A DNA stretch of 64,000 nucleotides. Source: Bacteroidales bacterium. GTDB taxonomy: Bacteria > Bacteroidota > Bacteroidia > Bacteroidales > Azobacteroidaceae. The position numbers and the translations under genes were made by a program. How positions within the stretch are numbered: the stretch's first letter is position 1; every line of letters begins with the position of its first letter. Under the pieces are notes generated by a model, which searched no databases, was not told the DNA's origin, and saw only the letters and a program-made list of their open reading frames with translations. This document shows positions 13,002 through 34,663 of this stretch, piece after piece. The DNA lies in assembly GCA_031556375.1 (NCBI GenBank), contig JAVBTA010000003.1:103319-167318 (forward strand), in the 5' to 3' direction.

Positions 13002-13839
13002 GTTGTTGAAGTTTATTTTTAATTGCTCTATAAACTAACCATACTCCGGCTATAACAAACGGAATACTTAATAATTGCCCCATATTCAGTCCTATACTAG
13101 CTACCAGATCCAGTTCAAATGCTTCTTGTACTTCTTTGAAATATTCGATAATAAAACGGGAAAGGAAAATCCCTATCAGGAAAACCCCAAAGATAAGACC
13201 TTTGCTATTTTGGGCATCTTTTTTCCAATATAGCCACATACAGATACACGCAGTGATAATGTAACAAAATGCTTCGTAAAGCTGAGTCGGATGTGATGGC
13301 ATAGAGAAAATCGGAGGAGCGCCTTTTTCCCAACGGTTAATATTGGTAATAAACCGGAAAGCCCATGGTACACTAGTCTCATGTCCATAAACTTCGTGAT
13401 TTATCAGGTTTCCCAAACGGATAAATGCTGCTGTAAACCCGACAGGAACGACAAGGCGATCCAGAGTCCAGAACATATTCTTTTTGGTCACGAATTTGGA
13501 ATACAACCAAATGGCAATGAGAATACCAATAGTACCTCCATGACTTGCCAGTCCGCCATCTCTGATCCTTAATATTTCAATCGGGTGAGCCAGATAATAA
13601 TCCGGATCATAGAATAAACAATGTCCTAACCTGGCACCAACCGTAGTCGCTACAATAACATAAAAGAATAGTTTATCGAACCAGGCTTCATTAAGTTCTT
13701 CATGTTTCCACATTTTGTAGACAATGAAACTGCCCAATGCGAAACCCAATGTGAAAGCAATACCATACCATCTGATTTCTCCCAGGAACGGAATGGTGAA
13801 CGCTACCGGATCGACGGTCCAGGTAATGAATGATAACAT
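12985..13839 (-). CDS. lgt: Prolipoprotein diacylglyceryl transferase
   Basis: Polytopic membrane protein with the Lgt signature region ([12 protein letters not shown]...[19 protein letters not shown]). Confidence 0.8.
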
Positions 13840-15132: not shown

Positions 15133-18100
15133 ATGGGTATGAGAAAACAATTACATTTAATCCGGTTTATGATTTTGTCGTTCGCTGTGGTATGGTGTAT
15201 ACCATCATGGGCACAAATCAGCGAAGGGGGAATTCCTCCCAGTTTTGGGTTGCCCATATTGAGGCAATCAGCACAACCGTATCAAACTGCTATTAAGTTC
15301 AATGTTAATGAATTGAAAGCAGAAGACGCTAAAAATGAAGCGGAAGGAGCACCAATTCGTACGGCAATTATTATTCCATCTGATTTAAGTATTGAAAAAG
15401 ACGGCAGATGGACTGATCTGGCTGACGGTCGACGTATTTGGCAATTGGAGATTAGTGCTCCTGATGCTATAGCTCTTTTACTTTATTATGATGAATTTTA
15501 TATTCCTAAAGGAGGTAAGCTATTCATATACAATAAAGAAAAGAATCATATTCTTGGAGCCTATACAGAAAAGACCAATATAAAAGGCGGAAAATTTGCC
15601 ACAGAGTTTGTAGCCGGCGATAAGTTAGTCTTAGAGTACGTTTCTCCTTCAGAAACATTAACAATGACCGATGAGTCCGGAAAGACCTTACCGGTAATAG
15701 CTAAAGGTAATCCCCGCATCAAGATCTCAGGTATAGCATACGGATATAATCATCTGGATGTTTATCATATAAAAAATGAAAGACCTCAATTAAGAGTGGG
15801 AGAATCCGGTAGTTGTATGATCAACATCAATTGTCCTGAAGGCGACAATTGGCAGCTACAAAAAAGAGGAGTAGCAAAAAGCGTAACTCCAATCGGATCT
15901 GGAGCTTATCTTTGTTCCGGAACAATTCTTAACAATACCGTCCAGGATTTTGATCCTCTTTTCTTAACTGCAAGTCATTGCTTTTATACCAGCGATGCCA
16001 CTGCCAAGTGTACGGATTTTTCTCAGGTCATTTATTATTTCAATTATGAAAGCTTTAATTGTATGACGACTTATCCGGATCAAACACGCACAATGGTAGG
16101 GGCCGAGCTATTGGTGGAGCTACCGACTATAGGTGGTATAGCCGGAACAGGAGGTACCGACGGTGGATTATTACGATTACTGAATCCAATCCCTCCGGAT
16201 TATAACGTTTTTTATAATGGTTGGGATAACCGGAACATTGCTCCTACAAGCGGAGTAGGAATCCACCACCCTGCAGGAGATATAAAGAAAATATCAACAT
16301 ATACGACTACTGCAGGACAAACAACATGGACAGGAGGCCCCTCGAACCAGTGGTGGAATGTGACATGGGCTAGTACTGTAAGTGGAAAAAGTTTAACTGA
16401 AGGTGGTTCATCAGGCTCTCCATTGTTTAACCAAAATAAAAGGGTTGTTGGTTGTCTGACAGGAGGGCCTTCACAACAGGGTGTGCCTAAATGTGAACAA
16501 CCGGTATCCACGCATGTAGCCTATTACGGAAAGTTATCCTACCATTGGGACGGAGATAATACAGGCTCTGGAATTGTCGACCAAACAAAAAAAATGAAAG
16601 ATTATCTTGATCCGAATAACTCAGGGGCAAATTTTATAGATGGAAAATACAACTCTTCGGCTTCGACAAATGCAATTTTTGAAGTAGATAAAAGTGATAT
16701 AATTGTGTTTGAATCTGTAAATTTCAGAGATGGATCTTCTGGTGCAAATACATGGGAGTGGACATTTGAAGGAGGGACACCAAGTACTTTTAATGGAAAA
16801 CAACCTCCTGTTATTACATACAATGCTCCGAGTCCCACCGGAGGATTTACAGCTAAGTTGGTTGTCAATAAGGGAACTGCAAATGAAAGTAGTATGGAAG
16901 TGAAAATCCAGGTAAAAGAATTAGGAGATAACCCACAGACTCCCGTTGCACGTTTCTCTCTTGAAGAAATCCTAACCTTATCTGAAGGATTTGACACATC
17001 AATACCTCCTACAGGCTGGAATCTCGATAAACCAGGAGCAAGCACCAATCAATTCATATTGGCAAACATGACTAATGCTGCATTAAACTTTAATACGATC
17101 GATCCTAATAGTCAATATTCGGCTCTTGTCCAACATGATGATACTGAGGTTGTAGATACATGGTTGAAATCACCGGCATATACATTCTCTGACCCAAATA
17201 CATGGCTTGAATTTTATGGATTCTATGCTACTGCATATATAGATAATGACAAGTTTTTATCCGTATCGGTTTCTACTGATGGAGGAAATAACTGGACTGA
17301 AATCTGGACAAACGCAGATTTAAGCGGCGACGGTGATTTATCATGGCACAAACATAAAGTGGACCTGTCAACTTATGTTGGTCAAAGTATTAGATTAGGA
17401 TTTAGATATTATGGACAAGGAGGATACTTTGGCGGATTCGACGGTATAAAAATAGTCACTCCTTCTGACCCAGCCCAGGCAAAAACAATCAATGTAGGTG
17501 ACTACATTACTCCTGTCGAGTGGAGTTCAGGCCCCCCGATTCTTTATGAATGGACATTTGAAGGAGGAACACCAGCAACATCAACAGAACAAAATCCGGG
17601 TACTATTCGATATCTGCAACCGGGTACATTCGACATCACACTAAAAGTGAAAAATTATAGGGGTGAAGATATACATACCTTTACTGATGCAGTAACTGTA
17701 ATTCTGCATACACCTGAAACTGATTTTATAAGTCAGGGATATAACCGTACCGATTTTGCCCGCGCAATTCCGGTAAATGTCCCGGTAAAGTTTACCGATC
17801 TGTCGAAAAACTATCCTGATCAATGGAACTGGACTTTTACAGGAGGTACACCTACTACTTCCACAACACAAAATCCAATCGTAACCTACTCAACTGAAGG
17901 CATCAGCAATGTTAGTCTTACTGCGAAAAATATTACAGGAGAAAACACTGCAACAAAAAATAGTTATATACATGCAGGTTATTTAACCCACGATATTTGG
18001 AATATAAGTCAGGGGGAGACAACAACCAACACATGGAGGGCTACAGCTACAAACTATATTACCGGATCAAATGCAGGTACAATTGTTCCATATAGCGAGT

Positions 18101-20934
18101 TCGCCGAATTATTCGACGCACCCTTAGCATCCGGAGTGTTACGCAAAATTCAGATTTCTTTCTGGACAGGAGCAGCTACTAATGCAGGAAACCTGACTCT
18201 TAAGTTATACAATGTCGGAGCTGATGGTTTTCCTTCAACTACTTTCCACTCACAAACATTTCCTATTTCAGGTATCAACACATCAGGATATACCACTATA
18301 ACTCTTTCAAAAGAAGTTTCTATCAATGATAAGTTCTATGTTGCGATAGCTGGATTTGCCGCCACTACCAGCCAATTGGTAGCAGTTAGGGCCTCCAGCT
18401 TAAGGGCGCCTGAAGACAATCGGGTTTGTTTCTATAGTTTATATCATGATGTTATATTAAATCGCCCCTGGATTAGTACAGCCAGTCAGTACAACGTAGG
18501 ATTATCTATGAATATCGTTCCGGAATTTACCTACACTTACTATGAACTTAGTGGCGATAAAGAAGTATACCGTAAGAATATAGACAACACTATCGGAACA
18601 GCATCTGTAAGTACTAATGCAAGCTGGACGGCAACCACTAATGCAAGCTGGATTACGATCAGCAATGGTTCAGGCACCGGTAACGGCACTTTTACTTACA
18701 CAGTCAGTCAAAACGATGGAATGCTAAGAGATGGTGTCATAACTATTTCGTGCATGGGAAATCAAGAAACAATCCTTGTTGTACAGGCCGGACCAAACCC
18801 AATAAATCTTACGGCAACTCTTACAACTGAATCCGCAGTCGGTTTATCATGGGATGCTCCGGCTATCAAAGATATCTACGACAATATCGAAGGACATACA
18901 AGTTTTACCCTTGATTCTCCGGGTAGTGCAGGTTGGTCGTATATCGACGCCGATGGTGGTACTCCCGTAGCCATTTCATATGATGGAGAAACGTTTCCGA
19001 ATGTCAACATTCCAAGTTCATTCATGGTATACACGCCTGGAGAAACAACGCCTCCGATTACAGATGCACTGTTTGCACCTCATAGCGGTAACAAGTTCCT
19101 CGCATGTCCAAAGAATATTGCCAATACAGGAGCAAATAACGACTGGATAATAAGTCCGGAATTAGGTTTTGACAGGAATTTCAAATTTGTATTCTGGGCC
19201 AAATCCATTCATCCAAGTTATGCCGAACATATCCGTGTTGCATACTCAACCGCAGGAAAAACGGTCAGTGATTTTACGAATGTTGTTACATCCGGAAGTT
19301 ATGTAAGTGTTCCTAGTGCATGGACTAAATATGAATTTACAATACCGGCAAATGCCAAATATGTTGCATTGAATTGTGTATCAAACTATGCATTTATGCT
19401 TATGGTAGATGATATTTATATCGGTATTGGGGATGCTCCGGCAGGTATTTATCCAGAGATGGCAATTACCAGCGGATTATTGAAATTTATGGTTGACGGA
19501 AAAATTGAGATAGTTCAACCCGAATTTAACGCACTATTAAATAAAATGAAGGAAGCTGTTGTACGACAAGAGATCCCTGCGACTCTTACAAATGAGACAA
19601 CAGGTGAAATCATTCAATTAAATACTGAAAAAATTTCGGGTAATGCTGCTCCTATAAGCCAAGGAGGAGCATTGATGATTACGCAACAAAATTCGTTTAT
19701 TGGTATTCAAACCAATACAGGTATAAAATACAATATTTACCGTGATGGAAGCTTAATTGCCAACGGATTGTCAACAACTAACTATACAGACTTATATACA
19801 CCAGGTGGAAATGTGTGTTATACTGTAACTGCTGTATATAATGACGACAGCAGACTGGAAACAACAGAATCCAACGAAGTATGCCTGGCGGCTCCTTCCG
19901 CAATGATAGTCCAGGCTTTAGATGCAAGCAGACAACGATTCACGGACAATCCGACTTTCAATTTCACGATTACCGGTAATTTGATGGGATTACATACGAT
20001 TGACGAAGTCAGAACTTGGGTTACAGCAAGCACTACTGCCAATTATTATTCACCGGTAGGTGCTTATCCGATTATCCCTTCCGTAAATAATCCGCAACCT
20101 CAATATGTATTCCGGTTTATTAATGGAATATTGACTATTACAGCTCCTCCTATTCCTGTAATCCTGGAACAACCTAAGGATGCCGTATTATGTGAAGGAA
20201 GCAACTATACATTATCGGTAAAAACGCAGGGAGAAGAGCTGAATTACCAATGGTATAAGGGCAATAGCAAGATTATGGGTGTTAATTCCTCCAGTCTGGA
20301 ATTGAAAAACATAACCAGGAATGATTACGATACTTACTATGTCGTAGTAAGCAATGAGAGAGGAACTACATATAGCGAAAAGGCAAGGATATATGTTGTC
20401 GAACCTCTGGGTAGTATTTCTTACAAGGAATTTCCGGATGTTGCTGTCACAGGTTCTACTTACTCATTGAAATTGAATGGTTATTCCAACGTTACCAAAT
20501 ACACATGGAGTTTCAGCAAAGACAATGTTGTCAGCTTTGAACCTGAATCAGGCGCAAGGAATGAAACAAAAATAACATTCAGCGCTACAGCAATCGGAGT
20601 TGGAACAATAAAAGTAGACCTGGAACATACTTGCGGTACTTATTCTCATAGTAGAGATGTAAATGTTAAATATCCGACCGGAATTGATGATGTAAACAAT
20701 TCTATTGTAAAAATTTATCCTAATCCGGTAAGTAACATTCTGAATATATCTTACAATCAACAGCCGATCAAATCTGTAATTGTAAATGATATCAGCGGAC
20801 GAACTATTGAGCGTTATGATAATGTTGGATCCTACCAATTAGCTATCCAGGCTTCAAAATGGACAAAAGGTACTTATATTATCATTATTGAGACAAATAC
20901 TGGAAGAACCGTTCAAAAAGTTATCAAAAAATAG
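15133..20934 (+). CDS. Giant T9SS-secreted multidomain S1 (trypsin-like) serine protease/adhesin with PKD, cleaved-adhesin, BACON and Ig-like domains
   Basis: Signal peptide (MILSFAVVWCIPSWAQ). S1 His motif LTASHC. S1 Ser motif TEGGSSGSPLF. Three W-x-W-T-F-x-G-G-T-P PKD-like repeats. Two jelly-roll domains match the gingipain K2-type 'cleaved adhesin' pattern (SYIDADGGTP, NDWIISPELGF, YAEHIRVAYSTAGKTVSDFTN, DDIYIG). A BACON-like segment (ASWITISNGSGTGNGTFTYTVSQNDGMLRDGVITIS...VVQAG). An Ig-like domain (LCEGSNYTLSVKT...YQWYKGNS...DYDTYYVVVSNERG). A C-terminal T9SS type-A sorting domain (KIYPNPVSNILNISY...GTYIIIIETNTGRTVQKVIKK). Confidence 0.8.
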   Translation: MGMRKQLHLIRFMILSFAVVWCIPSWAQISEGGIPPSFGLPILRQSAQPYQTAIKFNVNELKAEDAKNEAEGAPIRTAIIIPSDLSIEKDGRWTDLADGRRIWQLEISAPDAIALLLYYDEFYIPKGGKLFIYNKEKNHILGAYTEKTNIKGGKFATEFVAGDKLVLEYVSPSETLTMTDESGKTLPVIAKGNPRIKISGIAYGYNHLDVYHIKNERPQLRVGESGSCMININCPEGDNWQLQKRGVAKSVTPIGSGAYLCSGTILNNTVQDFDPLFLTASHCFYTSDATAKCTDFSQVIYYFNYESFNCMTTYPDQTRTMVGAELLVELPTIGGIAGTGGTDGGLLRLLNPIPPDYNVFYNGWDNRNIAPTSGVGIHHPAGDIKKISTYTTTAGQTTWTGGPSNQWWNVTWASTVSGKSLTEGGSSGSPLFNQNKRVVGCLTGGPSQQGVPKCEQPVSTHVAYYGKLSYHWDGDNTGSGIVDQTKKMKDYLDPNNSGANFIDGKYNSSASTNAIFEVDKSDIIVFESVNFRDGSSGANTWEWTFEGGTPSTFNGKQPPVITYNAPSPTGGFTAKLVVNKGTANESSMEVKIQVKELGDNPQTPVARFSLEEILTLSEGFDTSIPPTGWNLDKPGASTNQFILANMTNAALNFNTIDPNSQYSALVQHDDTEVVDTWLKSPAYTFSDPNTWLEFYGFYATAYIDNDKFLSVSVSTDGGNNWTEIWTNADLSGDGDLSWHKHKVDLSTYVGQSIRLGFRYYGQGGYFGGFDGIKIVTPSDPAQAKTINVGDYITPVEWSSGPPILYEWTFEGGTPATSTEQNPGTIRYLQPGTFDITLKVKNYRGEDIHTFTDAVTVILHTPETDFISQGYNRTDFARAIPVNVPVKFTDLSKNYPDQWNWTFTGGTPTTSTTQNPIVTYSTEGISNVSLTAKNITGENTATKNSYIHAGYLTHDIWNISQGETTTNTWRATATNYITGSNAGTIVPYSEFAELFDAPLASGVLRKIQISFWTGAATNAGNLTLKLYNVGADGFPSTTFHSQTFPISGINTSGYTTITLSKEVSINDKFYVAIAGFAATTSQLVAVRASSLRAPEDNRVCFYSLYHDVILNRPWISTASQYNVGLSMNIVPEFTYTYYELSGDKEVYRKNIDNTIGTASVSTNASWTATTNASWITISNGSGTGNGTFTYTVSQNDGMLRDGVITISCMGNQETILVVQAGPNPINLTATLTTESAVGLSWDAPAIKDIYDNIEGHTSFTLDSPGSAGWSYIDADGGTPVAISYDGETFPNVNIPSSFMVYTPGETTPPITDALFAPHSGNKFLACPKNIANTGANNDWIISPELGFDRNFKFVFWAKSIHPSYAEHIRVAYSTAGKTVSDFTNVVTSGSYVSVPSAWTKYEFTIPANAKYVALNCVSNYAFMLMVDDIYIGIGDAPAGIYPEMAITSGLLKFMVDGKIEIVQPEFNALLNKMKEAVVRQEIPATLTNETTGEIIQLNTEKISGNAAPISQGGALMITQQNSFIGIQTNTGIKYNIYRDGSLIANGLSTTNYTDLYTPGGNVCYTVTAVYNDDSRLETTESNEVCLAAPSAMIVQALDASRQRFTDNPTFNFTITGNLMGLHTIDEVRTWVTASTTANYYSPVGAYPIIPSVNNPQPQYVFRFINGILTITAPPIPVILEQPKDAVLCEGSNYTLSVKTQGEELNYQWYKGNSKIMGVNSSSLELKNITRNDYDTYYVVVSNERGTTYSEKARIYVVEPLGSISYKEFPDVAVTGSTYSLKLNGYSNVTKYTWSFSKDNVVSFEPESGARNETKITFSATAIGVGTIKVDLEHTCGTYSHSRDVNVKYPTGIDDVNNSIVKIYPNPVSNILNISYNQQPIKSVIVNDISGRTIERYDNVGSYQLAIQASKWTKGTYIIIIETNTGRTVQKVIKK

Positions 20935-20961
20935 CATTTTGCAAGTAAACCCTCTAAATTA

Positions 20962-21001
20962 AAGCGGTGATTCTGAAAAGTTTCACCGCTTTTCATTTTT
21001 A
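20962..21001 (+). terminator. Rho-independent terminator after the protease gene
   Basis: AGCGGTGA-ttctgaaaagtt-TCACCGCT followed by TTTCATTTTT. Confidence 0.65.
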
Positions 21002-21081
21002 TTTAATGTTTTTTATATCAAAAGGTTATTTTTCGCGATATTTTTTTTTGTGAATTATTATTGTAAATCATTTTTAATCCG

Positions 21082-21089
21082 TAGCTTTG
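21082..21089 (+). promoter_or_regulatory. Bacteroidetes-type -7 promoter element (TAnnTTTG) for the glm-mal operon
   Basis: TAGCTTTG lies about 33 nt upstream of the glmS ATG at 21122. Confidence 0.45.
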
Positions 21090-21121
21090 TACCAAAATTT
21101 AAGCACACCAAATTAACATTT

Positions 21122-21529
21122 ATGAAAATAAAAACCATTGTTACCGGAGTTATCGGAGCCGATGTACATGCTGTTGGTAACAAAATTTTAGCTTATGCCC
21201 TGGAAGATGCCGGTTTTAATGTTGTGAATCTGGGAGTTATGGTTTCCCAGGAAGAGTTTATCAACGCCGTTCTGGAAACAAATGCCAGTGCAATTGTGGT
21301 CTCCTCTCTTTACGGACACGGGGAAATCGATTGTAATGGACTGCGTGATAAATGCAATGAAGCCGGTTTAAAAGATATAGTACTTCTTGTCGGAGGAAAT
21401 CTGGTAGTTGGGAAACAAGACTTCGCAGATGTTGAAAAGCGTTTTACAGCTATGGGATTCACCAAAGCATACCCTCCGGGAACCTCATTAGAAACAACAA
21501 TTGAAGACCTGAATAAATTTCTAAGTTAA
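21122..21529 (+). CDS. glmS: Glutamate (methylaspartate) mutase S chain, B12-binding subunit
   Basis: [50 protein letters not shown]...[26 protein letters not shown]...[15 protein letters not shown] matches what I recall of clostridial GlmS/MutS. It has the DxHxxG cobalamin-binding motif (ADVHAVG). Confidence 0.9.
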
Positions 21530-21539
21530 CAAATCCGTT

Positions 21540-22922
21540 ATGATTTACTTAACGGCCGATTTTGGAAGCACCTATACGAAATTGACAGCCATTGATGCCA
21601 AAGAATCCTGTATTCTGGCGACTTCCAATGCTTTCACCACCATTGAAACAAATATCATGGCCGGGTTTCATACTGCTTTATCAAAACTGGAAGAAAAATT
21701 TGGGAAACTACACTATGACAAAATTCTTTGTTGTAGCAGTGCAGGCGGGGGGCTGAAAATGGTAGCTCTCGGACTGGTGCCCGAACTCACAGCCAAAGCT
21801 GCTAAACTGGCAGCATCCAGTGCCGGAGCAAAAGTCGTTAAGACCTATTCTTTTGAAATATCACAATCTGAACAAAATGAGATTTATGAGATAAACCCGG
21901 ACGTAGTACTCTTGTGCGGAGGTACCGACGGAGGAAATAAAGAGGTAATCATAGCCAATGCCCAAAGATTATCTGCCATAGATCGTAATTTTTCAATCAT
22001 TGTTGCCGGAAATAAAAGCGCATCATACGAATTGGACGATATCCTGAAAGCTTCAGGAAAAGATTATGTAATCACAGACAATGTCATGCCTGTATTCAAC
22101 AGCCTGAATATTGAACCGGCCAAACAATGTATACGTGAAGTATTTATCCGCAAAATTATAGATGCCAAAGGTCTCTCAGAAGTACAACAAATGGCTTCAT
22201 CGGAGATCATCCCTACTCCACTGGCTGTAATGAATGCCTGCGAACTACTCAGTAAAGGTACGAAAAACAATGAGGGTATCGGAGAATTAATGGCTATCGA
22301 TCTCGGAGGAGCAACTACCGATGTTTATTCCATGGCTGCCGGAAAACCAATGGCAGAAAACGTACTTATCAAAGGACTGCCGGAACCTTTCAGTAAACGT
22401 ACCGTAGAAGGTGATCTGGGAATGCGATATAGTCTATCTTCCCTTGCTGAAGAACTCGACCTGGAAAATCTTGAGAAAGAAATCGGAGCAGAACCTCAGG
22501 AAATCAATCGCTGGGTTGAACGCTGCGTCTCCGATCCATCCATCATTGCCCATCTCGAAAGTAAAGAATTAAAGATAGAGGAAGTATTGGCTAAAAGTGC
22601 TATCGAACTGGCTGTTGAAAGACATTGTGGAATCATGGAAAGCGCTTATTCTCCGATGGGAATCATTTTTTCCATTACAGGAAAAGACCTGACAGAAATA
22701 CCGTATATAATTGGTATTGGCGGAATCCTGGTTAACAATCCACATCCGGAAAAATTACTTGAAGGTGCCAGGTTCAGTTTAGCAAAAAGCAACTCTATGA
22801 GACCGAAAAATCCGAAGTTCTTACTGGACAAAGAATATATTTTCGCCTCTATGGGATTACTCAGCTCTATAGATCCGGATTTGGCACTCTGTTTAATGAA
22901 AAAAGAAATAAATATACAATGA
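21540..22922 (+). CDS. glmL: Glutamate mutase-associated protein GlmL/MutL (ASKHA-fold, putative mutase chaperone/reactivase)
   Basis: N-terminus MIYLTADFGSTYTKLTAID. About 460 aa. It sits between the S and E mutase subunits, as in clostridial mutS-mutL-mutE operons. Confidence 0.8.
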   Translation: MIYLTADFGSTYTKLTAIDAKESCILATSNAFTTIETNIMAGFHTALSKLEEKFGKLHYDKILCCSSAGGGLKMVALGLVPELTAKAAKLAASSAGAKVVKTYSFEISQSEQNEIYEINPDVVLLCGGTDGGNKEVIIANAQRLSAIDRNFSIIVAGNKSASYELDDILKASGKDYVITDNVMPVFNSLNIEPAKQCIREVFIRKIIDAKGLSEVQQMASSEIIPTPLAVMNACELLSKGTKNNEGIGELMAIDLGGATTDVYSMAAGKPMAENVLIKGLPEPFSKRTVEGDLGMRYSLSSLAEELDLENLEKEIGAEPQEINRWVERCVSDPSIIAHLESKELKIEEVLAKSAIELAVERHCGIMESAYSPMGIIFSITGKDLTEIPYIIGIGGILVNNPHPEKLLEGARFSLAKSNSMRPKNPKFLLDKEYIFASMGLLSSIDPDLALCLMKKEINIQ

Positions 22923-22949
22923 TAATATAATCAGAAGATTAACAGTAAT

Positions 22950-24410
22950 ATGGAAATTAAGAACAAAAAATTATCGATGGATGATTTCCTTGCGGAACGC
23001 AAAGAAGTTCTTGAACAATGGCCCACCGGTAAGGATGTAAATCTAGAAGAAGCCATTAAATACCAGAAGGAAATACCTGCGGAAAAACGCTTTGGCGACA
23101 AGTTAGCCCACGCAAAAGAATACGGGCTGACCCTCATTCAACCCCGTGCAGGTGTTGCTCTTTATGATGAACACATCAAGTTACTCCAATACCTTGAAAC
23201 AGAAGGAGAAGCTGATCTTTTACCTACCACTATCGACAGTTATACCCGTCTCAACCGGTATAATGAAGCTCAAGTCGGTATTGAAAAGAGTAAGGAAAGC
23301 GGACGATCTATGCTCAATGGGTTTCCGGCCGTTAACTACGGTGTGGGAATTTGCCGTACAGTTACATCTTCTCTCAAAAGTCCGGTACAAGTGCGTCACG
23401 GGACTCCGGATGCGCGTTTGCTGACTGAAATCACTATTGCGGGAGGATTTACTTCATACGAAGGGGGAGGTATTTCGTATAATATTCCCTATTCGAAGAA
23501 TCATTCTCTTGAAAAAACAATTGCTCATTGGCAATATGCCGACCGTTTGATCGGTTATTATGAAGAAAATGGAGTTTCTATCAATAGAGAGCCATTCGGA
23601 CCGTTGACAGGGACACTTGTTCCTCCTTGTATTTCCAACTCAGTGGCTATAATAGAAGCAATACTAGCTGCAACACAAGGGGTTAAAGACGTTACTGTAG
23701 GTTACGGCCAATGCGGGAACCTGATCCAGGATGTCGCTGCGATTCGTTCTCTGGAACGTGAAACCCGCAGATATCTGGATCAATTCGGTTTTCACGATGT
23801 ACGTGTAACCACTGTATTCCACCAATGGATGGGAGGATTTCCACAAGACGAATCCAAATCATTCGCAGTAATCTCCTGGGGTGCAGCAGCCGCTGTTCTG
23901 GCAAAAGCAACCAAAGTGATCGTAAAAACGCCACATGAAGCAATGGGGGTCCCTACGAAAGAAGCAAACGCAGAAGGATTGAGAGCTTCCAAACAGTTGG
24001 CATCTATGTTGCAAGTGCAGAGTTTTGTCGATATACCTGCAGTTGTGGCTGAAGCTAGTATTATCAATCAGGAAGTTGAAAGCATCATTAATAAGGTAAT
24101 CGAATTAGGAAAAGGAGACATCGCAATCGGTACTGTTGCTGCGTTTGAAGCTGGTGTTATAGATATTCCCTTTGCACCTAGCAAATATAACGCTGGAAAA
24201 ATTATGCCTGCCCGTGACAACTCCGGAGCCGTACGTTTCCTGGATTCCGGGAATATTCCATTAACAAACGATCTAAAAGCATTCCATCGTGGAAAACTGG
24301 AAGAACGTGCTAAATATGAAAACCGTCCGGTAAGTTTCCAAATGGTAATCGACGACGTATATGCCATCGGAAAAGGATTTTTGGTAGGACGTCCACATGG
24401 AGTAAAATAA
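22950..24410 (+). CDS. glmE: Glutamate (methylaspartate) mutase E chain
   Basis: [46 protein letters not shown]...[20 protein letters not shown]...[15 protein letters not shown] closely parallels clostridial GlmE as I recall it. 486 aa. Confidence 0.9.
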
Positions 24411-24423
24411 TAAAAAAAATTAT

Positions 24424-25668
24424 ATGAAAATTATAGATGTTGTTTGTGCCCAAGGCAAAACAGGTTTTTTCTTTGATGATCAGAAAGCCATTAAAGCGGG
24501 AGCTAATCACGATGGAGCCTTCTACGAAGGCCAACCTATGACAGAAGGTTTTACTTCAGTAAGACAATCCGGAGAATCCATTTCCGTATTATTTATCCTT
24601 GAAAACGGAATCGTTGCACATGGTGACTGTGCTGCAGTGCAATATTCCGGAGCAGGCGGACGCGACCCATTGTTCCTTGCTAAAGATTTTATTCCGGTAA
24701 TCGAAAACGAAATAGCTCCTTTATATAAAGGAACGGAAATCACTACATTCCGTGAAATGGCTGATTTAATTGACAAAAAAATCAATTCAACAACAGGCAA
24801 AGCATATCACACTGCAATCCGTTACGGAGTTACCCAGGCTTGCCTCGATGCAGTAGCTAAAAGCAAATCCAAATTGATGGCTCAGATTATTGCCGAAGAA
24901 TATGGAACATGTATTTCAAATGCCATTATTCCTATTTTTTCTCAATCAGGAGACGACCGTTATTTGAATGCCGATAAAATGATCATGAAAGGCGCAGATG
25001 TCCTTCCTCATGCCCTTTTCAACCATGTTGAAGAAAAAACAGGATTAAAAGGAGAAAAAATACAGGCATATATAGAATGGTTGCGTGACCGTATTTTGAA
25101 ATTCAAACCATATGCAGGATACAATCCTGTCATTCATATTGACGTTTATGGCACGTTAGGGCCGGTTTTCAATAATGATTTTGAGAAAATAGCCGATTAT
25201 ATAGGAGATCTGGCAAACCGGGCTAAACCGTTCCATTTACGTGTTGAAGGACCTGTCGATATGGGAGAAAAAGATGCTCAGATCGATGGTTTACGTAAGA
25301 TCCGCGAATTCATGGAGAAAAAGGGAATTACCGCAGAAATCGTAGCTGATGAATGGTGTAATACTTTCGAAGATATCCGGGATTTTACGACACATAAAGC
25401 CGGTCACATGGCACAGATTAAAACTCCCGATCTTGGAGGTATCAATAATTCTATAGAAGCTGTACTTTACTGTAAAGCAAACGGTATGGGCGCCTATTTA
25501 GGAGGTACCTGTAATGAAACCAACCGTTCTGCCGAAGTTTGTGCCCATATCGCAATGGCAACCTCCCCTGTACAATATCTGGCAAAACCGGGTATGGGTG
25601 TGGATGAAGGTTATATGATCGTTTTCAATGAAATGCAACGTATATTAGCGTTAAAAAATAAACTATAA
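24424..25668 (+). CDS. mal: Methylaspartate ammonia-lyase (beta-methylaspartase)
   Basis: MKIIDVVCAQGKTGFFFDDQKAIKAGANHDG...TEGFTSVRQSGESISVLFILENGIVAHGDCAAVQYSGAGGRDPLFLAKDFIPVIENEIAP is almost colinear with clostridial MAL as I recall it. 414 aa. Confidence 0.9.
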   Translation: MKIIDVVCAQGKTGFFFDDQKAIKAGANHDGAFYEGQPMTEGFTSVRQSGESISVLFILENGIVAHGDCAAVQYSGAGGRDPLFLAKDFIPVIENEIAPLYKGTEITTFREMADLIDKKINSTTGKAYHTAIRYGVTQACLDAVAKSKSKLMAQIIAEEYGTCISNAIIPIFSQSGDDRYLNADKMIMKGADVLPHALFNHVEEKTGLKGEKIQAYIEWLRDRILKFKPYAGYNPVIHIDVYGTLGPVFNNDFEKIADYIGDLANRAKPFHLRVEGPVDMGEKDAQIDGLRKIREFMEKKGITAEIVADEWCNTFEDIRDFTTHKAGHMAQIKTPDLGGINNSIEAVLYCKANGMGAYLGGTCNETNRSAEVCAHIAMATSPVQYLAKPGMGVDEGYMIVFNEMQRILALKNKL

Positions 25669-25670
25669 AC

Positions 25671-27041
25671 ATGGACGAAATAAGAGTACTTTCCGCTACA
25701 GCGATCCTGGGATATGGTTTCCCTATGGAATCGTTTGTCGAAGGAATGAAACGCAAACCCCACGTAATTGCAGTAGACGCCGGGTCGACTGATCCTGGGC
25801 CTTATTATCTTGGTGCAGGAAAATCATTTACCGATTATAATTCCGTAAAACGTGACCTCGAAATCATGATTCCAGCGGCCCTGGAAGCCAATATTCCGGT
25901 AATGATCGGTTCTGCCGGTGGCTCCGGAGGTAGACCTCACGTTGAATTTAACCTGCAAATTATCAGAGAAATAGCCAAAGAAAAAAATCTTTCTTTCAAA
26001 CTGGCCGTTATCGAAGCTGAACTTGACAAAGAGCTGGTTAGAGGTAAATTAAAAAAAGGTGAAATTTCTCCTTTATATCCGGCACCGGAACTTACCGAAG
26101 ATGAGCTGGATAAGACTGTCCGTATCGTTGCTCAAATGGGAGAAGAACCATTCATCAAAGCTTTGGATGAAAAAGCAGATGTAATTTTGGCAGGACGTGC
26201 TTATGATCCTTGCGTATTCTCAGCTCTGGCTATTAAACACGGTTTTGATCGCGGATTGGCCATCCATATGGGAAAAATCCTCGAATGTGCTTCTATTGCT
26301 GCTGTTCCGGGAAGCGGAAGCGACTGTATGTTCGGTTACTTGCACAAAGAAGACTTCGTTCTCGAGCCACTCTCTCCTATCCGTAAATGTACAACATTAT
26401 CTGTTGCAGCTCATACGCTTTACGAAAAGAGTAATCCGTATATCCTGCCCGGACCTGGTGGCGCTATCAATTTGCATCAATCCAAGTTTGAGCAGATTTC
26501 AGACAATATGGTAAAAGTTTCCGGAAGCCGTTTCGAACCGACAGAAGATTACTTTGTCAAGTTAGAAGGTGTCAAGAAGGTAGGATGCCGAACAATCTCT
26601 ATTGCGGCAACTAAAGATCCGGTAATGATTGAAAAAATCGAAACCATCGTCCAAAGCGTAAAAGATCGTGTACGCAACAATTTCGAAGCTTATGGAATCA
26701 AAGATTTCTTTCTGGATTTCAAGATTTACGGTAAAAACGGTACAATGGGATTATTTCCCGGAATAGAGAATAAAGTGGCCCACGAATTGTGTATTGTTAT
26801 CGAGGCCGTCGCTCCCACTCAGGATCAAGCAGATACAATTTGCGGATTTGCCCGTAGTACCATGTTGCACTTCGGATATGAAGGACGTATATCTACTGCC
26901 GGAAACCTCGCATTTCCATTTTCTCCATCGGATTGTAAAGTCGGTGAAATCTACGAATTCAGCATTTATCATTTGATGAAAGTAGAAGATCCTGCGGAAC
27001 ATTTTCCGATTACTTATATTAACTTTGTAGAAGGAAAATAA
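25671..27041 (+). CDS. AtuA/DUF1446-like protein of unknown function, embedded in the methylaspartate operon
   Basis: 456 aa. Its size and its partnership with a downstream 105-aa DUF4387-like gene match the AtuA-family/DUF4387 gene pair, recalled from annotation patterns. No catalytic motif could be assigned by eye. The 2-nt gap to mal implies co-translation in the operon. Confidence 0.5.
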   Translation: MDEIRVLSATAILGYGFPMESFVEGMKRKPHVIAVDAGSTDPGPYYLGAGKSFTDYNSVKRDLEIMIPAALEANIPVMIGSAGGSGGRPHVEFNLQIIREIAKEKNLSFKLAVIEAELDKELVRGKLKKGEISPLYPAPELTEDELDKTVRIVAQMGEEPFIKALDEKADVILAGRAYDPCVFSALAIKHGFDRGLAIHMGKILECASIAAVPGSGSDCMFGYLHKEDFVLEPLSPIRKCTTLSVAAHTLYEKSNPYILPGPGGAINLHQSKFEQISDNMVKVSGSRFEPTEDYFVKLEGVKKVGCRTISIAATKDPVMIEKIETIVQSVKDRVRNNFEAYGIKDFFLDFKIYGKNGTMGLFPGIENKVAHELCIVIEAVAPTQDQADTICGFARSTMLHFGYEGRISTAGNLAFPFSPSDCKVGEIYEFSIYHLMKVEDPAEHFPITYINFVEGK

Positions 27042-27053
27042 AACAGTAATATT

Positions 27054-27371
27054 ATGGAATATAATTTAAGAGATGTTGCTTCTGTGATACGGAGTAAAAA
27101 CTCAGGTCCGTATGAATTGACTTTCGATATTATTTTCAAGGATTTTGAAATGTATGAGAAAGCAAAAGCTGCTAAAATAATGCATGAAAAAGTTTTTGCA
27201 AGCTTGTATAATATCCCTGAGTCGAATATAATGAAACTGGTGTATTTTGACCCGGCAAAAGCCATTAAAATCACCATTGTTCGCCCGATTCCTTCAGGAT
27301 CTCTCGGAGAAACGGATGTTTACGGAGCGCAACAACATGCACCTTTAATGGGTTTTACATTTAATTTATAA
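27054..27371 (+). CDS. DUF4387-like small protein, partner of the AtuA-like protein
   Basis: 105 aa, lying 12 nt after the AtuA-like gene. The assignment rests on size and context and is tentative. Confidence 0.45.
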   Translation: MEYNLRDVASVIRSKNSGPYELTFDIIFKDFEMYEKAKAAKIMHEKVFASLYNIPESNIMKLVYFDPAKAIKITIVRPIPSGSLGETDVYGAQQHAPLMGFTFNL

Positions 27372-27383
27372 TATACCGTTCCG

Positions 27384-28334
27384 ATGCGTAATATCATACA
27401 GGAATATTCGGTTTTTTCGCAGTATTTTGCCCCAAGCGACAGAAATAGTTTGCTGTTTCTGGGCGAACAGATCTCGCAACGCCATATGTATTACGATGAT
27501 AAACTGATCGGAATTGTCGGTGACGCCGGTTCCGGGAAATCTTCTTTGATCAAAGGTATGTTTCCCGGACTCGAGTTGTCAAATGATGATGACACTCTGA
27601 ATCCACGCAAGATCATGCAGGTCAGGGATTTATTTGAAGATATCCATGATGCGACAACTTATCATATCGATACCCGTTTCCAAGTCGCTTTTACACAAAT
27701 GCATGAAATCGTGATGTTTGTGAATCATGTATTAGAGAAAGGAAGACGGGTAGTTATCGAACATTTCGACATGCTTTATCCTGCCCTGGGTATCAATGCT
27801 GACCTGATTATCGGTATCGGAGAAGAGATTATCGTGACCCGTCCAAGTATGTTCGGCCCTTTACCTAAAAGCATTCACGAAATAGTAAGTAAATCGCTCC
27901 TTTACCGGAAAATGGCTCATACAGTGGAAGATATAACCATCATTATACTTATGGATGAGTTCGGCATTACCGATGATATGTTCTTTAATGCAGATATGCG
28001 GAACGGATTTGTACTTAAATTTTTCAAAGAGGTAGATATTGACATCGACCTGTTGTACAAAAGAGTCCGGGAAACATTAAATAAAAACCTGATAATCAAC
28101 TATTACGATGAAAATAACATCCTGATCGGAGATCGTTTAGTTCCTTGTAAAGGTCCCAGAATACACATACGGAATACTTCAGAAGTAAAAGAATTCAGCT
28201 TCGTTAAAAAATTAGTAAAAGACTATAAAACAGACACTTATTGTCTAATAGGAAGTTTCGCCAACGATCCGGATATCGACATCAGCAATTGGAACACCCT
28301 CCATTTCCTAAAAAGAAGAGATATAGAGTTATAA
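27384..28334 (+). CDS. P-loop (Walker A) protein of unknown function
   Basis: Contains GIVGDAGSGKSSLIKG, a GxxGxGKS P-loop that resembles the HPr-kinase/PEPCK-like type. 316 aa. It is in the operon with a 12-nt spacer. Confidence 0.5.
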   Translation: MRNIIQEYSVFSQYFAPSDRNSLLFLGEQISQRHMYYDDKLIGIVGDAGSGKSSLIKGMFPGLELSNDDDTLNPRKIMQVRDLFEDIHDATTYHIDTRFQVAFTQMHEIVMFVNHVLEKGRRVVIEHFDMLYPALGINADLIIGIGEEIIVTRPSMFGPLPKSIHEIVSKSLLYRKMAHTVEDITIIILMDEFGITDDMFFNADMRNGFVLKFFKEVDIDIDLLYKRVRETLNKNLIINYYDENNILIGDRLVPCKGPRIHIRNTSEVKEFSFVKKLVKDYKTDTYCLIGSFANDPDIDISNWNTLHFLKRRDIEL

Positions 28335-28397
28335 GTGTTGGCTTACGCAAGACAAAAAACTTTAGTATTACTTTAACTTTAAACTTAAAATCCCGAT

Positions 28398-29240
28398 ATG
28401 CGAACTATACAATCAAAATATATAACAGATCTTGTAGAAAATCTCTGTATTAAAGCAAATTGTGAATTATCTGATGATATCTACAGTTTCTTTTGCTCCA
28501 GTTGCCAGAAAGAAAAATCTCCTTTAGGCCGGGAAATCCTCTCTACACTGATCGAAAATGCCGATATAGCCCGCCAGGGCAATGATCCCATCTGCCAGGA
28601 TACCGGAATGACTGTTGTTTTCGTAACCATGGGACAGGATATACATGTTGAAGGTGGATTTATCGAAGATGCAATTAATGAGGGAGTTAGAAGAGGATAT
28701 GAAAAAGGATATCTACGTAAATCGGTTGTTAGTGATCCTATCAACCGGGTAAATACTAAAGACAACACTCCTGCAGTTATTCATTACGAAATCGTTCCTG
28801 GGGATCAATTTCATATTACTGTAGCTCCCAAAGGTTTCGGAAGTGAAAATATGAGCCAATTGCGTATGCTTAAGCCAAGCCAGGGATTGCAAGGCATCAA
28901 AGATTTTGTTATTCAGACGGTATCGGAAGCTGGAGCCAATCCTTGTCCTCCGATTATTGTCGGCGTAGGGATCGGTGGCACCATGGAAAAAAGCGCTTTA
29001 TTGAGCAAAAAAGCATTATTACGCCCAATTGGTCAGAAAAATGAAAATCCTCAATTGACAGCATTGGAAGCTGAACTTTTAGATGCAATCAATGCATTGG
29101 GAATCGGTCCTGCCGGATTTGGAGGAACGACGACAGCCATGAGTGTTAACATTCTCACTTATGCGACACATATCGCAGGACTTCCGGTTTCTGTGAATAT
29201 AGGTTGCCACGTAACCCGTCACGCCGACGGAGAATTATAA
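28398..29240 (+). CDS. Fe-S class I fumarate/tartrate-type hydratase alpha subunit, presumed mesaconase alpha
   Basis: ICQDTGMTVVFVTMGQDIHVEGG carries the CQDTG signature of the FumA/TtdA N-terminal catalytic region. 280 aa. Confidence 0.8.
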   Translation: MRTIQSKYITDLVENLCIKANCELSDDIYSFFCSSCQKEKSPLGREILSTLIENADIARQGNDPICQDTGMTVVFVTMGQDIHVEGGFIEDAINEGVRRGYEKGYLRKSVVSDPINRVNTKDNTPAVIHYEIVPGDQFHITVAPKGFGSENMSQLRMLKPSQGLQGIKDFVIQTVSEAGANPCPPIIVGVGIGGTMEKSALLSKKALLRPIGQKNENPQLTALEAELLDAINALGIGPAGFGGTTTAMSVNILTYATHIAGLPVSVNIGCHVTRHADGEL

Positions 29241-29259
29241 ATATCTGATTATCGGTATT

Positions 29260-29820
29260 ATGGAAAAAAGAATTGAAATAACAACTCCGTTTACGGATGA
29301 AATAATAAAAGGATTGAAAGCAGGTGATATGGTTTACCTATCCGGAACTATTTATACAGCCAGAGATGCTGCACATAAAAAAATGTGTGAGCTACTGGAG
29401 CAAGGCCAAGCTATGCCATTCGACTTTACAGGATCCGCCATATACTACGCCGGACCATGTCCTGCAAAACCGGGCAAGCCAATTGGTTCTGTCGGACCGA
29501 CTACTAGCGGACGTATGGATCTTTATGCTCCGACCCTTATGAAAGAAGGACTCAAAGTAATGATCGGTAAGGGATTACGGAATAAAGATGTCGTTGATGC
29601 GATTGTCAAGTATTCTGGTGTTTATTTTGCAGCCATCGGTGGCGCTGCCGCCCTGATGGGACAAAGTGTGGAAAATGCAGAAATCATCGCATTCGACGAG
29701 TTAGGTACCGAGGCTGTGCGTAAATTACGAGTAAAGAACCTTCCCGTAATCGTTGCAATCGATTGTGAAGGACGGAATATCTACGAAGAAGGTCGAAAAG
29801 AGTTTGCAGTCAAAGTTTAA
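29260..29820 (+). CDS. Fe-S class I fumarate/tartrate-type hydratase beta subunit, presumed mesaconase beta
   Basis: [21 protein letters not shown]...[34 protein letters not shown] matches the TtdB/FumA C-terminal beta-domain family. 186 aa. Confidence 0.8.
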
Positions 29821-32772: not shown

Positions 32773-33351
32773 TTAAATGATTGAACTGGGAATGTTGGAT
32801 ACCATAACTGTTTGATTGTCAATGACACTATCCACATGAACTTTAGCGCCTGTTGGGATACGTTCACCTTCTGTCATGGCGTCGATTTCATGGTAAGCTC
32901 CACCAACACTCACCTGTATTTTTCCTCGTCCTTTTCTTTCTGCAGGAATCACCAGGTACACATCCGCAGTCTTTCCTATTGTATCTGCTATTTTGAAAGT
33001 CTTATCCGCAGCTAATTTTGTGATTTGAAGCATCAGAAAGAAAAATATTCCGACAAATAATAATCCGACAGCAACAGATACGATATTCAACACTAAAGTA
33101 GATGAAATCACGTTGTAAAAACAAACAGCGGCCCAACCATAACCAAGAAAGAAATTAATCAGGTTACGGAATGAAAATAATTGAAACGGACCTTCATGGT
33201 GCATATCTCCATCAAAATCGGCATTGAGACCGTCTGATGAATCCACTCCAAGAAAGGTCATAATTGTTTGGATAACAAAGATCAAACTGGCTATCAAAGT
33301 TATAGTCCAGTATACTTTAAGTGCAGGCTCGAGACTATTAAACCATTCCAT
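32773..33351 (-). CDS. NfeD-like membrane protein (flotillin partner)
   Basis: True start MEWFNSLEPALKVYWTITLIASLIFV (internal Met of the 269-aa ORF). Multi-TM N-terminus plus a C-terminal OB-like region. It lies immediately downstream of the flotillin gene on the same strand. Confidence 0.65.
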   Translation of the reverse strand: MEWFNSLEPALKVYWTITLIASLIFVIQTIMTFLGVDSSDGLNADFDGDMHHEGPFQLFSFRNLINFFLGYGWAAVCFYNVISSTLVLNIVSVAVGLLFVGIFFFLMLQITKLAADKTFKIADTIGKTADVYLVIPAERKGRGKIQVSVGGAYHEIDAMTEGERIPTGAKVHVDSVIDNQTVMVSNIPSSII

Positions 33352-33409
33352 AATTACATTTTTAAAAAATTGTTGTGTAAAGATAAGAAATTTTTCCCAC
33401 ATTTGCAAT

Positions 33410-34663
33410 ATGAAAACTCGAATATTCCCACTGTTGATTTTTATAGTTCTGATAATCGAATCATTATCAGCACAAGGTTTCAAAACCGAGACCTTCTCGG
33501 ATATGATTAAGACCCTTCGTGTTAATGTTGTCAACAATTGGGAAGCTCCCCCTGTGATAGAATTGGAAGGTGGTGAAGCCATTGAGATTAGTTTTGATGA
33601 GATTGCCGATCATTCCAAGCGATATGTTTATACCTTGACCCATTGCAATGCCGACTGGAAACCGTCACAATTGACCCAACATGAATATATGAGCGGATTT
33701 CAGAATATGATAGTAAATAACTATGCCAACTCATTCGGGACATACATGGATTATATCAATTATAAGTTGTATTTTCCAAATGAAGATCTGACAATGAAAG
33801 TTTCAGGAAATTATGTCGTACAGGTTTTCGAAGAAAATAATCCTAAAAAACCGGTTTTATCCGCCTGTTTTTCCGTAGTAGAACCACAGGTAAAGATTGA
33901 CATGCAGGTTTCATCCCGCACTGATATCGACATAAACAAATCGCATCAACAAGTCAGTTTTGATATGAATTATGACAACCGAGATATCTCTCCTATGCAG
34001 GACATCAAAGCTATTGTCTTACAAAACAATCGTTGGGATAATTCTTCCGGGATGGTCAAGCCAATAACACTTGGAAATAAGCAAATAAGATATGATCATA
34101 TTCCTAAACTGATTTTCGAAGGCGGAAACGAATATCGTAAATTTGAAGTTATTACTTTCAAATACAGCGGATTGGGAATTGAGTCGTTTTCCTATCATGC
34201 TCCTTATTATCATGCGGATATTCGTGCTGACAAACCACGTAACAACAGGTATTCGTACGACGAAGATGCTGATGGAAAATATGTCATCCGCAATAAAGAC
34301 GGTGTGGATTATGATATTGAAGCGGACTATTTCTTTGCTCACTTCTATCTTCCTGCAAAACAGCCGTATAGCGAAGATATTTACATTTTAAGTGAGATAT
34401 TTAATAATGTAGCTGATGAACACAGTAAAATGGAATACAGTGCACAGGATGAAGGTTATATCAAAACAATAATCCTTAAACAAGGATACTATAATTACAT
34501 GTATGTCACAAAGAAAAGAGATTCGGAAGCTTTGTCGACAGCATTACTGGAAGGTAATTATTATCAAACTGAAAATGAATATTGTACTTATATCTATTAT
34601 CGTCCTTCAGGAAGCCGGTATGATAAGCTGATCGGTTTTAAGAACCTGAAGTATAAGCCATAA
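33410..34663 (+). CDS. Secreted hypothetical protein (possibly the Bacteroidetes DUF5103-like family)
   Basis: Signal peptide MKTRIFPLLIFIVLIIESLSAQ. About 417 aa with no recognisable catalytic motif. The long upstream extension of the ORF is an artefact. Confidence 0.5.
   Translation: MKTRIFPLLIFIVLIIESLSAQGFKTETFSDMIKTLRVNVVNNWEAPPVIELEGGEAIEISFDEIADHSKRYVYTLTHCNADWKPSQLTQHEYMSGFQNMIVNNYANSFGTYMDYINYKLYFPNEDLTMKVSGNYVVQVFEENNPKKPVLSACFSVVEPQVKIDMQVSSRTDIDINKSHQQVSFDMNYDNRDISPMQDIKAIVLQNNRWDNSSGMVKPITLGNKQIRYDHIPKLIFEGGNEYRKFEVITFKYSGLGIESFSYHAPYYHADIRADKPRNNRYSYDEDADGKYVIRNKDGVDYDIEADYFFAHFYLPAKQPYSEDIYILSEIFNNVADEHSKMEYSAQDEGYIKTIILKQGYYNYMYVTKKRDSEALSTALLEGNYYQTENEYCTYIYYRPSGSRYDKLIGFKNLKYKP

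Follow-up and report, generated by a model that had tools for sequence, protein, structure and literature searches.

A nine-gene operon predicted to encode the complete 3-methylaspartate route of glutamate fermentation in a Bacteroidales genome

The 64,000-nucleotide stretch of contig JAVBTA010000003.1 (assembly GCA_031556375.1, Bacteroidales bacterium) analysed here, referred to below as the window, carries nine co-directional open reading frames (ORFs) with their upstream promoter-like site at positions 21082-29820 of the plus strand, in the order glmS-glmL-glmE-mal-cmlA-cmlB-g7-mesA-mesB. These genes are predicted to form a single transcription unit for the entire 3-methylaspartate route, in which glutamate yields pyruvate, acetate and ammonia, with g7 as an accessory gene of the pathway; the operon appears to be native to this Dysgonomonadaceae-like genome and to represent the form of the pathway that is standard in Bacteroidales. 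A probability of about 85% is assigned to this reading as a whole. The Bacteroidales operon is a third layout assembled from known parts, beside the clostridial one (CitDEF and MesAB) and the enterobacterial one (CmlAB, FumD, CobO and a symporter); since its lyase is of the CmlAB type, it is not a copy of the clostridial arrangement. A CmlA-anchored scan, taking one genome per species, revealed 133 close relatives, and the best 80 of these 133 were used for the locus analysis. Almost all of these 80 loci belong to Bacteroidota (71-92% CmlA identity), and the full set of nine genes, in unchanged order, is found in 47 of them, most of the others being cut by contig ends.

The first four genes can be assigned clearly (Table 1). 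GlmS contains the cobalamin-binding motif DxHxxG (D14-V-H16-A-V-G19), and its score with the glutamate mutase model NF002612 is 211 bits versus 68 bits with TIGR00640, the acid-CoA-mutase domain. GlmE aligns without gaps over residues 1-482 with GlmE of Clostridium cochlearium (PDB codes 1CCW and 1CB7; 705 bits), and residues R66, R100, R149, E171 and Y181 are conserved in this alignment; following the 1CCW structure, the three arginines are taken to bind the substrate, and E171 and Y181 to be the catalytic Glu and Tyr. Mal matches the C. tetanomorphum enzyme (1KCZ) with 597 bits and the Citrobacter enzyme with 490 bits, and it retains, in 1KCZ numbering, the Mg2+ ligands D238, E273 and D307, the catalytic residues K331 and H194, and the substrate-binding residues Q73, Q172, Q329, T360, C361 and L384. 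The equivalog scores and the conserved active sites of GlmE and Mal rule out another B12-mutase paralogue of the methylmalonyl-CoA mutase kind. GlmS and GlmE of the window would thus be expected to interconvert glutamate and 3-methylaspartate in an adenosylcobalamin-dependent manner.

The two genes following mal, left without identification, like g7, in an earlier reading of the same sequence (hereafter the initial annotation), encode counterparts of a citramalate lyase that works without coenzyme A (CoA) or acyl carrier protein (ACP). The CmlA match to PDB entry 9ERQ, chain A ('Citramalate lyase, subunit A (cmlA)'), covers residues 4-442 with 511 bits, and the CmlB match to chain B ('Citramalate lyase, subunit B (cmlB)') covers residues 2-104. 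The structures 9ERQ and 9EVF represent CmlAB of Raoultella planticola, with which the window pair shares the subunit lengths (456 and 105 amino acids), the full-length match and mal as a genomic partner; the differences are that the window lyase is about 56% identical to the enterobacterial type, as measured against the E. coli orthologue, and that g7 is the next gene downstream of the window pair. A preprint that used the Raoultella enzyme reported that it converts (S)-citramalate to pyruvate and acetate with neither CoA nor ACP, and the Bacteroidales CmlAB probably cleaves citramalate in the same way. No Pfam or NCBIfam match to CitD, CitE, CitF, CitC, CitX or CitG was found in any of the nine genes; the lyase of the window is, judging by its sequence, of the CmlAB type and not the ACP-dependent clostridial CitDEF.

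The last two genes, mesA and mesB, are separate and adjacent, and they encode an alpha (Fumerase) and a beta (Fumerase_C) subunit, respectively, as in two-subunit class I hydro-lyases. MesA contains cysteines C66 (CQDTG), C183 (PCPP) and C270 (GCH), which we take to be the ligands of a [4Fe-4S] cluster. MesAB is presumed to be a mesaconase on the grounds of its operon partners, which are mal and cmlAB in the window and citDEF and glm genes in the sampled Firmicutes clusters.

The intergenic gaps of the operon range from 2 to 63 nucleotides (nt), with 2 nt between mal and cmlA and 12 nt between cmlA and cmlB. The start of glmS was placed at the ATG at 21122 instead of the GTG at 21050 given in the mechanical ORF list, since the family match begins at residue 25-28 of the longer ORF and the orthologue in the closest relative, L002, has the same Met start. 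The hairpin at 20961-20992 lies between the upstream gene, which encodes a protein secreted by the type IX secretion system (T9SS), and the operon; the automatic terminator scan did not list it, which is attributed to its 12-nt loop exceeding the 8-nt limit of the scan. The box TAGCTTTG is the candidate promoter of the operon. TAnnTTTG has 34 plus-strand matches in the window, so the motif alone is weak evidence; it was found, however, in the 250 nt preceding glmS in 37 of 50 related loci, compared with 12% of random 250-nt stretches, and TAACTTTG, the box of L002, belongs to the same conserved stretch. A comparison of L002 2695-2812 with window positions 21090-21121 showed about 80-90 extra nt between the -7 box and the glmS start in L002, which are absent from the window. 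At its end, position 29820, the operon has a 4-nt overlap with the stop of a convergent RmuC gene. The common strand, the short gaps, the single upstream promoter-like site, the preceding terminator-like hairpin and the absence of space for internal terminators predict the co-transcription of the nine genes as one unit. A sigma-70 promoter and terminator scan of the window returned counts expected by chance, and it is uninformative for a Bacteroidales genome.

The initial annotation had proposed a complete methylaspartate-route module of nine genes at this position, preceded by a TAnnTTTG box and including a true glutamate mutase (S, L and E), methylaspartase and a two-subunit Fe-S hydratase. 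All nine ORFs were placed as claimed, and the family scores, the active sites, the structural matches of CmlAB, the PF05681 and PF05683 matches on adjacent genes and the recurrence of the box in related loci bear these proposals out.

Table 1. Features of the predicted operon; positions refer to the window, lengths are in amino acids (aa), and identities are to the Firmicutes cluster L090 and to the E. coli cluster.
Feature	Description	Positions	Strand	Evidence	Identity, L090	Identity, E. coli
Hairpin	Terminator-like; AAAGCGGTGA, 12-nt loop, TCACCGCTTT, then T-rich tail	20961..20992	+	Direct sequence reading		
-7 box	Bacteroidetes-type, TAGCTTTG; 33 nt before glmS ATG	21082..21089	+	Consensus TAnnTTTG		
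glmS	Glutamate (methylaspartate) mutase small subunit, B12-binding, 135 aa	21122..21529	+	NF002612 211 bits (cut-off 110); TIGR01501 193 bits (cut-off 135.8)	63%	60%
glmL (mutL)	Glutamate mutase accessory protein, 460 aa	21540..22922	+	PF13941 E 7e-169; NF040745 635 bits (cut-off 475)	44%	33%
glmE	Glutamate mutase catalytic subunit, 486 aa	22950..24410	+	TIGR01503 770 bits (cut-off 390)	66%	60%
mal	3-Methylaspartate ammonia-lyase, 414 aa	24424..25668	+	TIGR01502 585 bits (cut-off 286)		
cmlA	Large subunit of CoA/ACP-independent citramalate lyase (AtuA/DUF1446 family), 456 aa	25671..27041	+	PDB 9ERQ/9EVF chain A, E 2.8e-152; PF07287		
cmlB	Small subunit of citramalate lyase (DUF4387), 105 aa	27054..27371	+	PDB 9ERQ/9EVF chain B, E 4.7e-29; PF14330 E 7e-42		
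g7	Two-domain protein, 316 aa	27384..28334	+	TsaE-like P-loop NTPase N-terminal; AlaX/ThrRS editing-like (tRNA_SAD) C-terminal		
mesA	Alpha subunit of two-subunit class I Fe-S hydro-lyase, presumed mesaconase, 280 aa	28398..29240	+	PF05681 E 1e-118; NF004885 418 bits (cut-off 276)	60%	30%
mesB	Beta subunit of Fe-S hydro-lyase, 186 aa	29260..29820	+	PF05683 E 6.5e-59; NF005310 275 bits (cut-off 238)	54%	39%

In the proposed pathway, the adenosylcobalamin-dependent GlmS and GlmE, serviced by GlmL, would convert (S)-glutamate to (2S,3S)-3-methylaspartate; Mal would then remove ammonia to yield mesaconate, MesAB would add water to form (S)-citramalate, and CmlAB would split the latter into pyruvate and acetate without the clostridial CitDEF acyl-carrier-protein machinery. 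The flux would thus run in the fermentative direction, and g7 would provide an ATP-binding accessory, its position being near the lyase step. In Prevotella intermedia OMA14, mal and the two genes downstream of it are transcribed, with listed increases of 2.2-2.5-fold in the absence of iron (PMC10434189).

The clostridial cluster of the C. tetanomorphum/C. tetani type, represented by [Eubacterium] sulci-like and other Firmicutes contigs (L090 and L094-L097), serves the same four reactions with homologous GlmS, GlmL, GlmE and Mal, with MesAB and with a gene of the g7 family; the proteins of the clostridial-type cluster L090 are 41-66% identical to those of the window. The Firmicutes clusters differ in their ACP-dependent CitDEF lyase, accompanied by CitC and CitX/G in three of the five sampled, none of which is found in the window; they also contain a GntR regulator in all cases and are arranged as two divergent operons, whereas the window has a single operon with CmlAB. 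The enterobacterial cluster of the E. coli O157:H7 type (locus L001) has an identical order from glmS through glmL, glmE and mal to the genes for the AtuA-family protein (cmlA) and the DUF4387 protein (cmlB), with identities to the window of 54-60% for GlmS, GlmE, Mal and CmlA (CmlA 56%), 48% for CmlB and 33% for GlmL, but the genes after these six encode a dicarboxylate/amino-acid symporter, FumD (a single-chain fumarase of class I), CobO and a LysR regulator; the E. coli cluster lacks g7, and the window contains g7 and the split MesAB instead. In 2015, the fate of citramalate produced by the E. coli O157:H7 cluster was reported as unknown (Kronen and Berg 2015, PMC4682846). The methylaspartate cycle of haloarchaea also uses glutamate mutase and methylaspartase to form mesaconate (PMC4682846); there, mesaconate proceeds to mesaconyl-CoA, and the CoA-transferase, hydratase and lyase of that route are absent from the window operon, which encodes a mesaconase and a citramalate lyase instead.

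For the product of g7, all Pfam and NCBIfam models stay below their cut-offs. Below the threshold, the protein resembles TsaE (13.6 bits, cut-off 26.6) and tRNA_SAD (12.2 bits, cut-off 24), a resemblance at the fold level only; across the g7 family, sub-threshold matches to TsaE occur in all 40 of 40 members and to tRNA_SAD in 16 of 40. The N-terminal domain contains a Walker A motif (G46-DAGSGKS-53) and the motif E126-H127-F-D, and the C-terminal domain contains A178-H-T-V-E-D and C255-K-G-P-R-I-H261. Residues 254-275, including C255 and H261, align to positions 13-32 of the tRNA_SAD profile, a stretch that presumably corresponds to the Cys/His zinc motif region of this domain. The Walker A residues G46-x4-GKS, E126-H127, H179-x-x-E182 and C255-x-G-P-R-x-H261 are conserved across the Bacteroidota and Firmicutes branches of the family. 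The search for homologues yielded 1,366 proteins, with 60-87% identity among the best 120, and an exhaustive profile-free search recovered only 220 representatives at 50% clustering, indicating that the family is a narrow one. Searches of the PDB by sequence, using both the single protein and a profile, returned only P-loop matches, and no PDB protein joining a TsaE-like and an AlaX-like domain was found. The nearest relatives of g7 are the TsaE/YjeE ATPases and the editing domains of AlaX and ThrRS-AlaRS, from which g7 differs both in the first half of the zinc motif, which reads H179-x-x-E182 and not HxxxH, and in its genomic context, which is amino-acid fermentation and not translation.

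The gene follows cmlB in 65 of the 80 Bacteroidota loci, and, in a Riflebacteria-like contig (L086 3848-4813), it lies after cmlB and before a fused fumarase. It is also present in the classical methylaspartate cluster, in all five sampled Firmicutes contigs of at least 17 kb (L090 10001-10948; L094-L097 from 10001), where it is divergent from citD-citE-citF-(mesA-mesB)-gntR-glmS-glmL-glmE-mal and stands either alone or between citC and citX/G. The E. coli cluster contains no g7, and no similarity was found between g7 and either CobO or the 314-aa hypothetical protein encoded upstream of glmS in that cluster. Divergent paralogues of g7 (L082 3-1144; L083/L084 2-1600; 34-39% identity) form tandem pairs next to genes for an HTH-cupin regulator and an AMP-binding enzyme, or next to an AAA_13-like gene; since these contexts are unrelated, the g7 family is not limited to glutamate clusters.

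The product of g7 is thus likely to be an accessory ATP-binding protein linked to the pathway, and gene adjacency suggests that its action is at the lyase step or close to it. Perhaps the g7 family is a dedicated and previously unrecognised component of the 3-methylaspartate pathway, responsible for the ATP-dependent activation, repair or control of one of its enzymes, with its position suggesting citramalate cleavage, and required in at least three phyla by strict anaerobes that use either CitDEF or CmlAB; this proposal is put forward tentatively. While adjacency favours the lyase step, the complementarity with cobO leaves room for a role in B12 handling, such as a non-canonical ATP-dependent loading, adenosylation or repair of adenosylcobalamin for the mutase in place of the enterobacterial CobO. 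A cross-tabulation of g7 with glmE and with mesA over the related loci yielded few informative cases. In the E. coli cluster, cobO is present and g7 is missing, in the clusters of Bacteroidota, Firmicutes and the Riflebacteria-like lineage, g7 is present and no adenosyltransferase gene is visible, and the stand-alone cmlAB loci that have no glm genes (L048 and L053) also lack g7; moreover, the P-loop would bind a nucleotide, and the second domain derives from a fold that may recognise an adenosine-ester end. Such a role nevertheless appears rather unlikely, as g7 always adjoins the lyase genes and never glmS, glmL or glmE, the known accessory function is already supplied by GlmL, three loci have glmSLE-mal-cmlAB with no adjacent g7, and g7 shows no sequence similarity to CobO.

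The maturation or repair of the oxygen-labile [4Fe-4S] mesaconase has the least in its favour among the roles considered, and we regard it as improbable. Directly 5' of mesA in the window and in 57 related loci, and 5' of the gene for the fused fumarase on the Riflebacteria-like contig, g7 is placed as such a function would have it, and E. coli, with its single-chain FumD, has no g7; but seven Bacteroidota loci retain g7 with no mesAB nearby, the Firmicutes cluster L095 contains g7 and no mesAB, g7 and mesAB lie on opposite strands in Firmicutes, and the fold of g7 differs from those of the known Fe-S carrier ATPases.

Beyond the window, the related loci span Dysgonomonadaceae, Tannerellaceae, Bacteroides, Parabacteroides, Alistipes/Rikenellaceae, Muribaculaceae, Paludibacter, Petrimonas, Proteiniphilum, Fermentimonas, four named Prevotella species, Tannerella, Marinifilaceae, Marinilabiliaceae, Salinivirgaceae and Solitalea. 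The closest relative, L002, is a termite-gut-style Dysgonamonadaceae metagenome-assembled genome (MAG), with 82-92% identity per protein (92% for GlmS). In a neighbour-joining tree of GlmE, Mal and CmlA, the relatives form one tight clade far from E. coli, within which Prevotella, Muribaculaceae, Dysgonomonas and Proteiniphilum/Fermentimonas are each largely grouped. The base composition at third codon positions (GC3) of the operon genes is 0.30-0.42, and that of the other 36 ORFs of the window is 0.29-0.40; the synonymous codon log-likelihood is -1.056 for the operon versus -1.046 +/- 0.053 for the same 36 ORFs. The neighbours of the operon in the window are core genes, encoding AspRS, PFK, Lgt, DnaB, PheT and GldB.

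These results bear on the suggestion that the operon is an oddity in Bacteroidales, gained by horizontal transfer from Firmicutes or Fusobacteria and since ameliorated. The initial annotation had regarded the operon as a Clostridium/Fusobacterium signature unusual for Bacteroidales, and the standard review indeed places the pathway in clostridia (PMC8473912); GlmS, GlmL, GlmE, MesA and MesB are closer to the Firmicutes cluster than to E. coli (Table 1), the bit scores of Mal lean the same way, and an ancient transfer between phyla may be compatible with the present data. A recent transfer, however, is contradicted, and horizontal acquisition in general is judged very unlikely: the nine-gene layout extends across many Bacteroidales families and Solitalea, the clade is single, deep and largely coherent with taxonomy, GC3 and codon usage match those of the other genes of the window, the Bacteroidetes-type promoter box is common upstream in relatives, and the lyase is not the CitDEF of Firmicutes but CmlAB, which Enterobacteria also have and the classical clostridial cluster lacks. 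Of the checks named beforehand, the comparison of codon usage and GC content with other window genes gave no foreign signal, and the GlmE/Mal phylogeny, run as the GlmE+Mal+CmlA tree, gave a largely taxon-coherent clade, which, with the widespread presence in Bacteroidota, is the outcome that had been named as speaking against transfer; the presumed rarity of the operon in this order gives way to the 80 related loci. The literature search found no paper on the methylaspartate pathway in Bacteroidales.

It is highly improbable that genes 5 and 6 encode AtuA-type proteins of acyclic terpene or other catabolism, so that the operon would end at citramalate or feed another route: gene 5 does carry the Pfam label 'Acyclic terpene utilisation family protein AtuA' (79 bits, partial match), and neither gene has an NCBIfam model, but the citramalate lyase chains match far better and over their full length (511 vs 79 bits), cmlA lies directly 3' of mal, after a gap of 2 nt, in the window, in E. 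coli, in the Bacteroidota relatives and in the Riflebacteria-like locus L086, no gene of the atuB-H type (dehydrogenases, geranyl-CoA carboxylase, hydratase) was found among the ORFs scanned in and near the operon, and the Firmicutes clusters of mutase, lyase and hydratase have CitDEF where cmlAB is absent.

Several points weigh against the reading of the nine genes as a complete and native pathway. No glutamate transporter, regulator or adenosyltransferase is encoded among the nine genes, no gene for B12 uptake or synthesis was found among the window ORFs scanned (the scan covered part of the ORFs), and the Rfam search of the window, operon leader included, returned no riboswitch, whether for cobalamin or of another class. 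The function of CmlAB rests on the molecule names of the PDB entries and one preprint using the enzyme; the literature search found no primary paper on CmlAB and none mentioning 'DUF4387'. The mesaconase specificity of MesAB is not legible from the sequence, and the names of the NCBIfam models are 'fumarate hydratase' and 'Fe-S-containing hydro-lyase'. In the tree, many of the taxon labels come from MAGs, and Solitalea longa (L010) nests among Dysgonomonadaceae-like sequences, closer than Prevotella. The locus of this member of Sphingobacteriia holds the full nine-gene operon, with 78-85% identity for most proteins and 70% for GlmL and g7, suggesting transfer within the phylum.

The related loci also include variants of the layout. 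Three of them (L044, L061 and L072) end at cmlB, with no g7 or mesAB downstream, three others (L042, L068 and L079) end at g7, and, in L059, only a 134-aa N-terminal remnant of mesA (12673-13077) follows g7. Stand-alone cmlAB pairs with no glutamate mutase genes are found in L048 (10001-11710) and L053 (2191-3900, Porphyromonadaceae bacterium COT-184), with mesAB located about 4 kb upstream of the pair in L048, and cmlAB is accompanied by mal alone in L055 (8660-11717), again with no glutamate mutase genes; these loci suggest either other uses of the lyase or decayed clusters. Further relatives of CmlA are labelled Riflebacteria, Myxococcota, Spirochaetes, Deltaproteobacteria and others. A 6-kb contig of a MAG labelled Elusimicrobiota (L075) encodes a CmlA 72% identical to that of the window, with no glm or mal genes upstream, which could be a case of mis-binning or transfer.

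The gene directly upstream of the operon (15133-20934) encodes a 1,933-aa T9SS-secreted protein with trypsin-like peptidase, MAM-like, PKD, BACON, cleaved-adhesin, Ig and Por_Secre_tail domains; the presence of a secreted protease of this size next to genes for amino-acid fermentation fits a proteolytic lifestyle. The Por_Secre_tail and BACON domains of this ORF, together with the CHU_C and GldB genes of the window, agree with the Bacteroidales context (T9SS, BACON) read from the sequence at the outset, and the order-level origin of the window is independently confirmed by a Bacteroidales small SRP (signal recognition particle) RNA at 4580-4687 (123 bits), immediately followed by a tRNA gene (to 4761). 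Elsewhere, the window contains a 1,204-aa ORF on the minus strand (50663-54277) and a 479-aa ORF on the plus strand (33224-34663), the latter overlapping an ORF at 32773-33582 on the opposite strand.

The standard account assigns the methylaspartate route to soil clostridia and the 2-hydroxyglutarate route to host-associated anaerobes, with no mention of Bacteroidales (Buckel 2021, PMC8473912). The genome survey indicates that a complete and conserved B12-dependent methylaspartate operon is common in host-associated Bacteroidales, including termite-gut Dysgonomonadaceae, oral Prevotella and Tannerella relatives, and gut Alistipes and Muribaculaceae. The locus of the window is itself one more copy of this common operon, and its remaining interest lies in the breadth of the pathway, the use of CmlAB and g7: the recently solved CmlAB appears to be the normal lyase of the pathway in Bacteroidota, and g7, a conserved gene travelling with the pathway in three phyla, offers a well-defined target for functional tests. 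If the operon functions as predicted, it would have a bearing on the peptide use, the ammonia and acetate output and the corrinoid demand of host-associated Bacteroidales.

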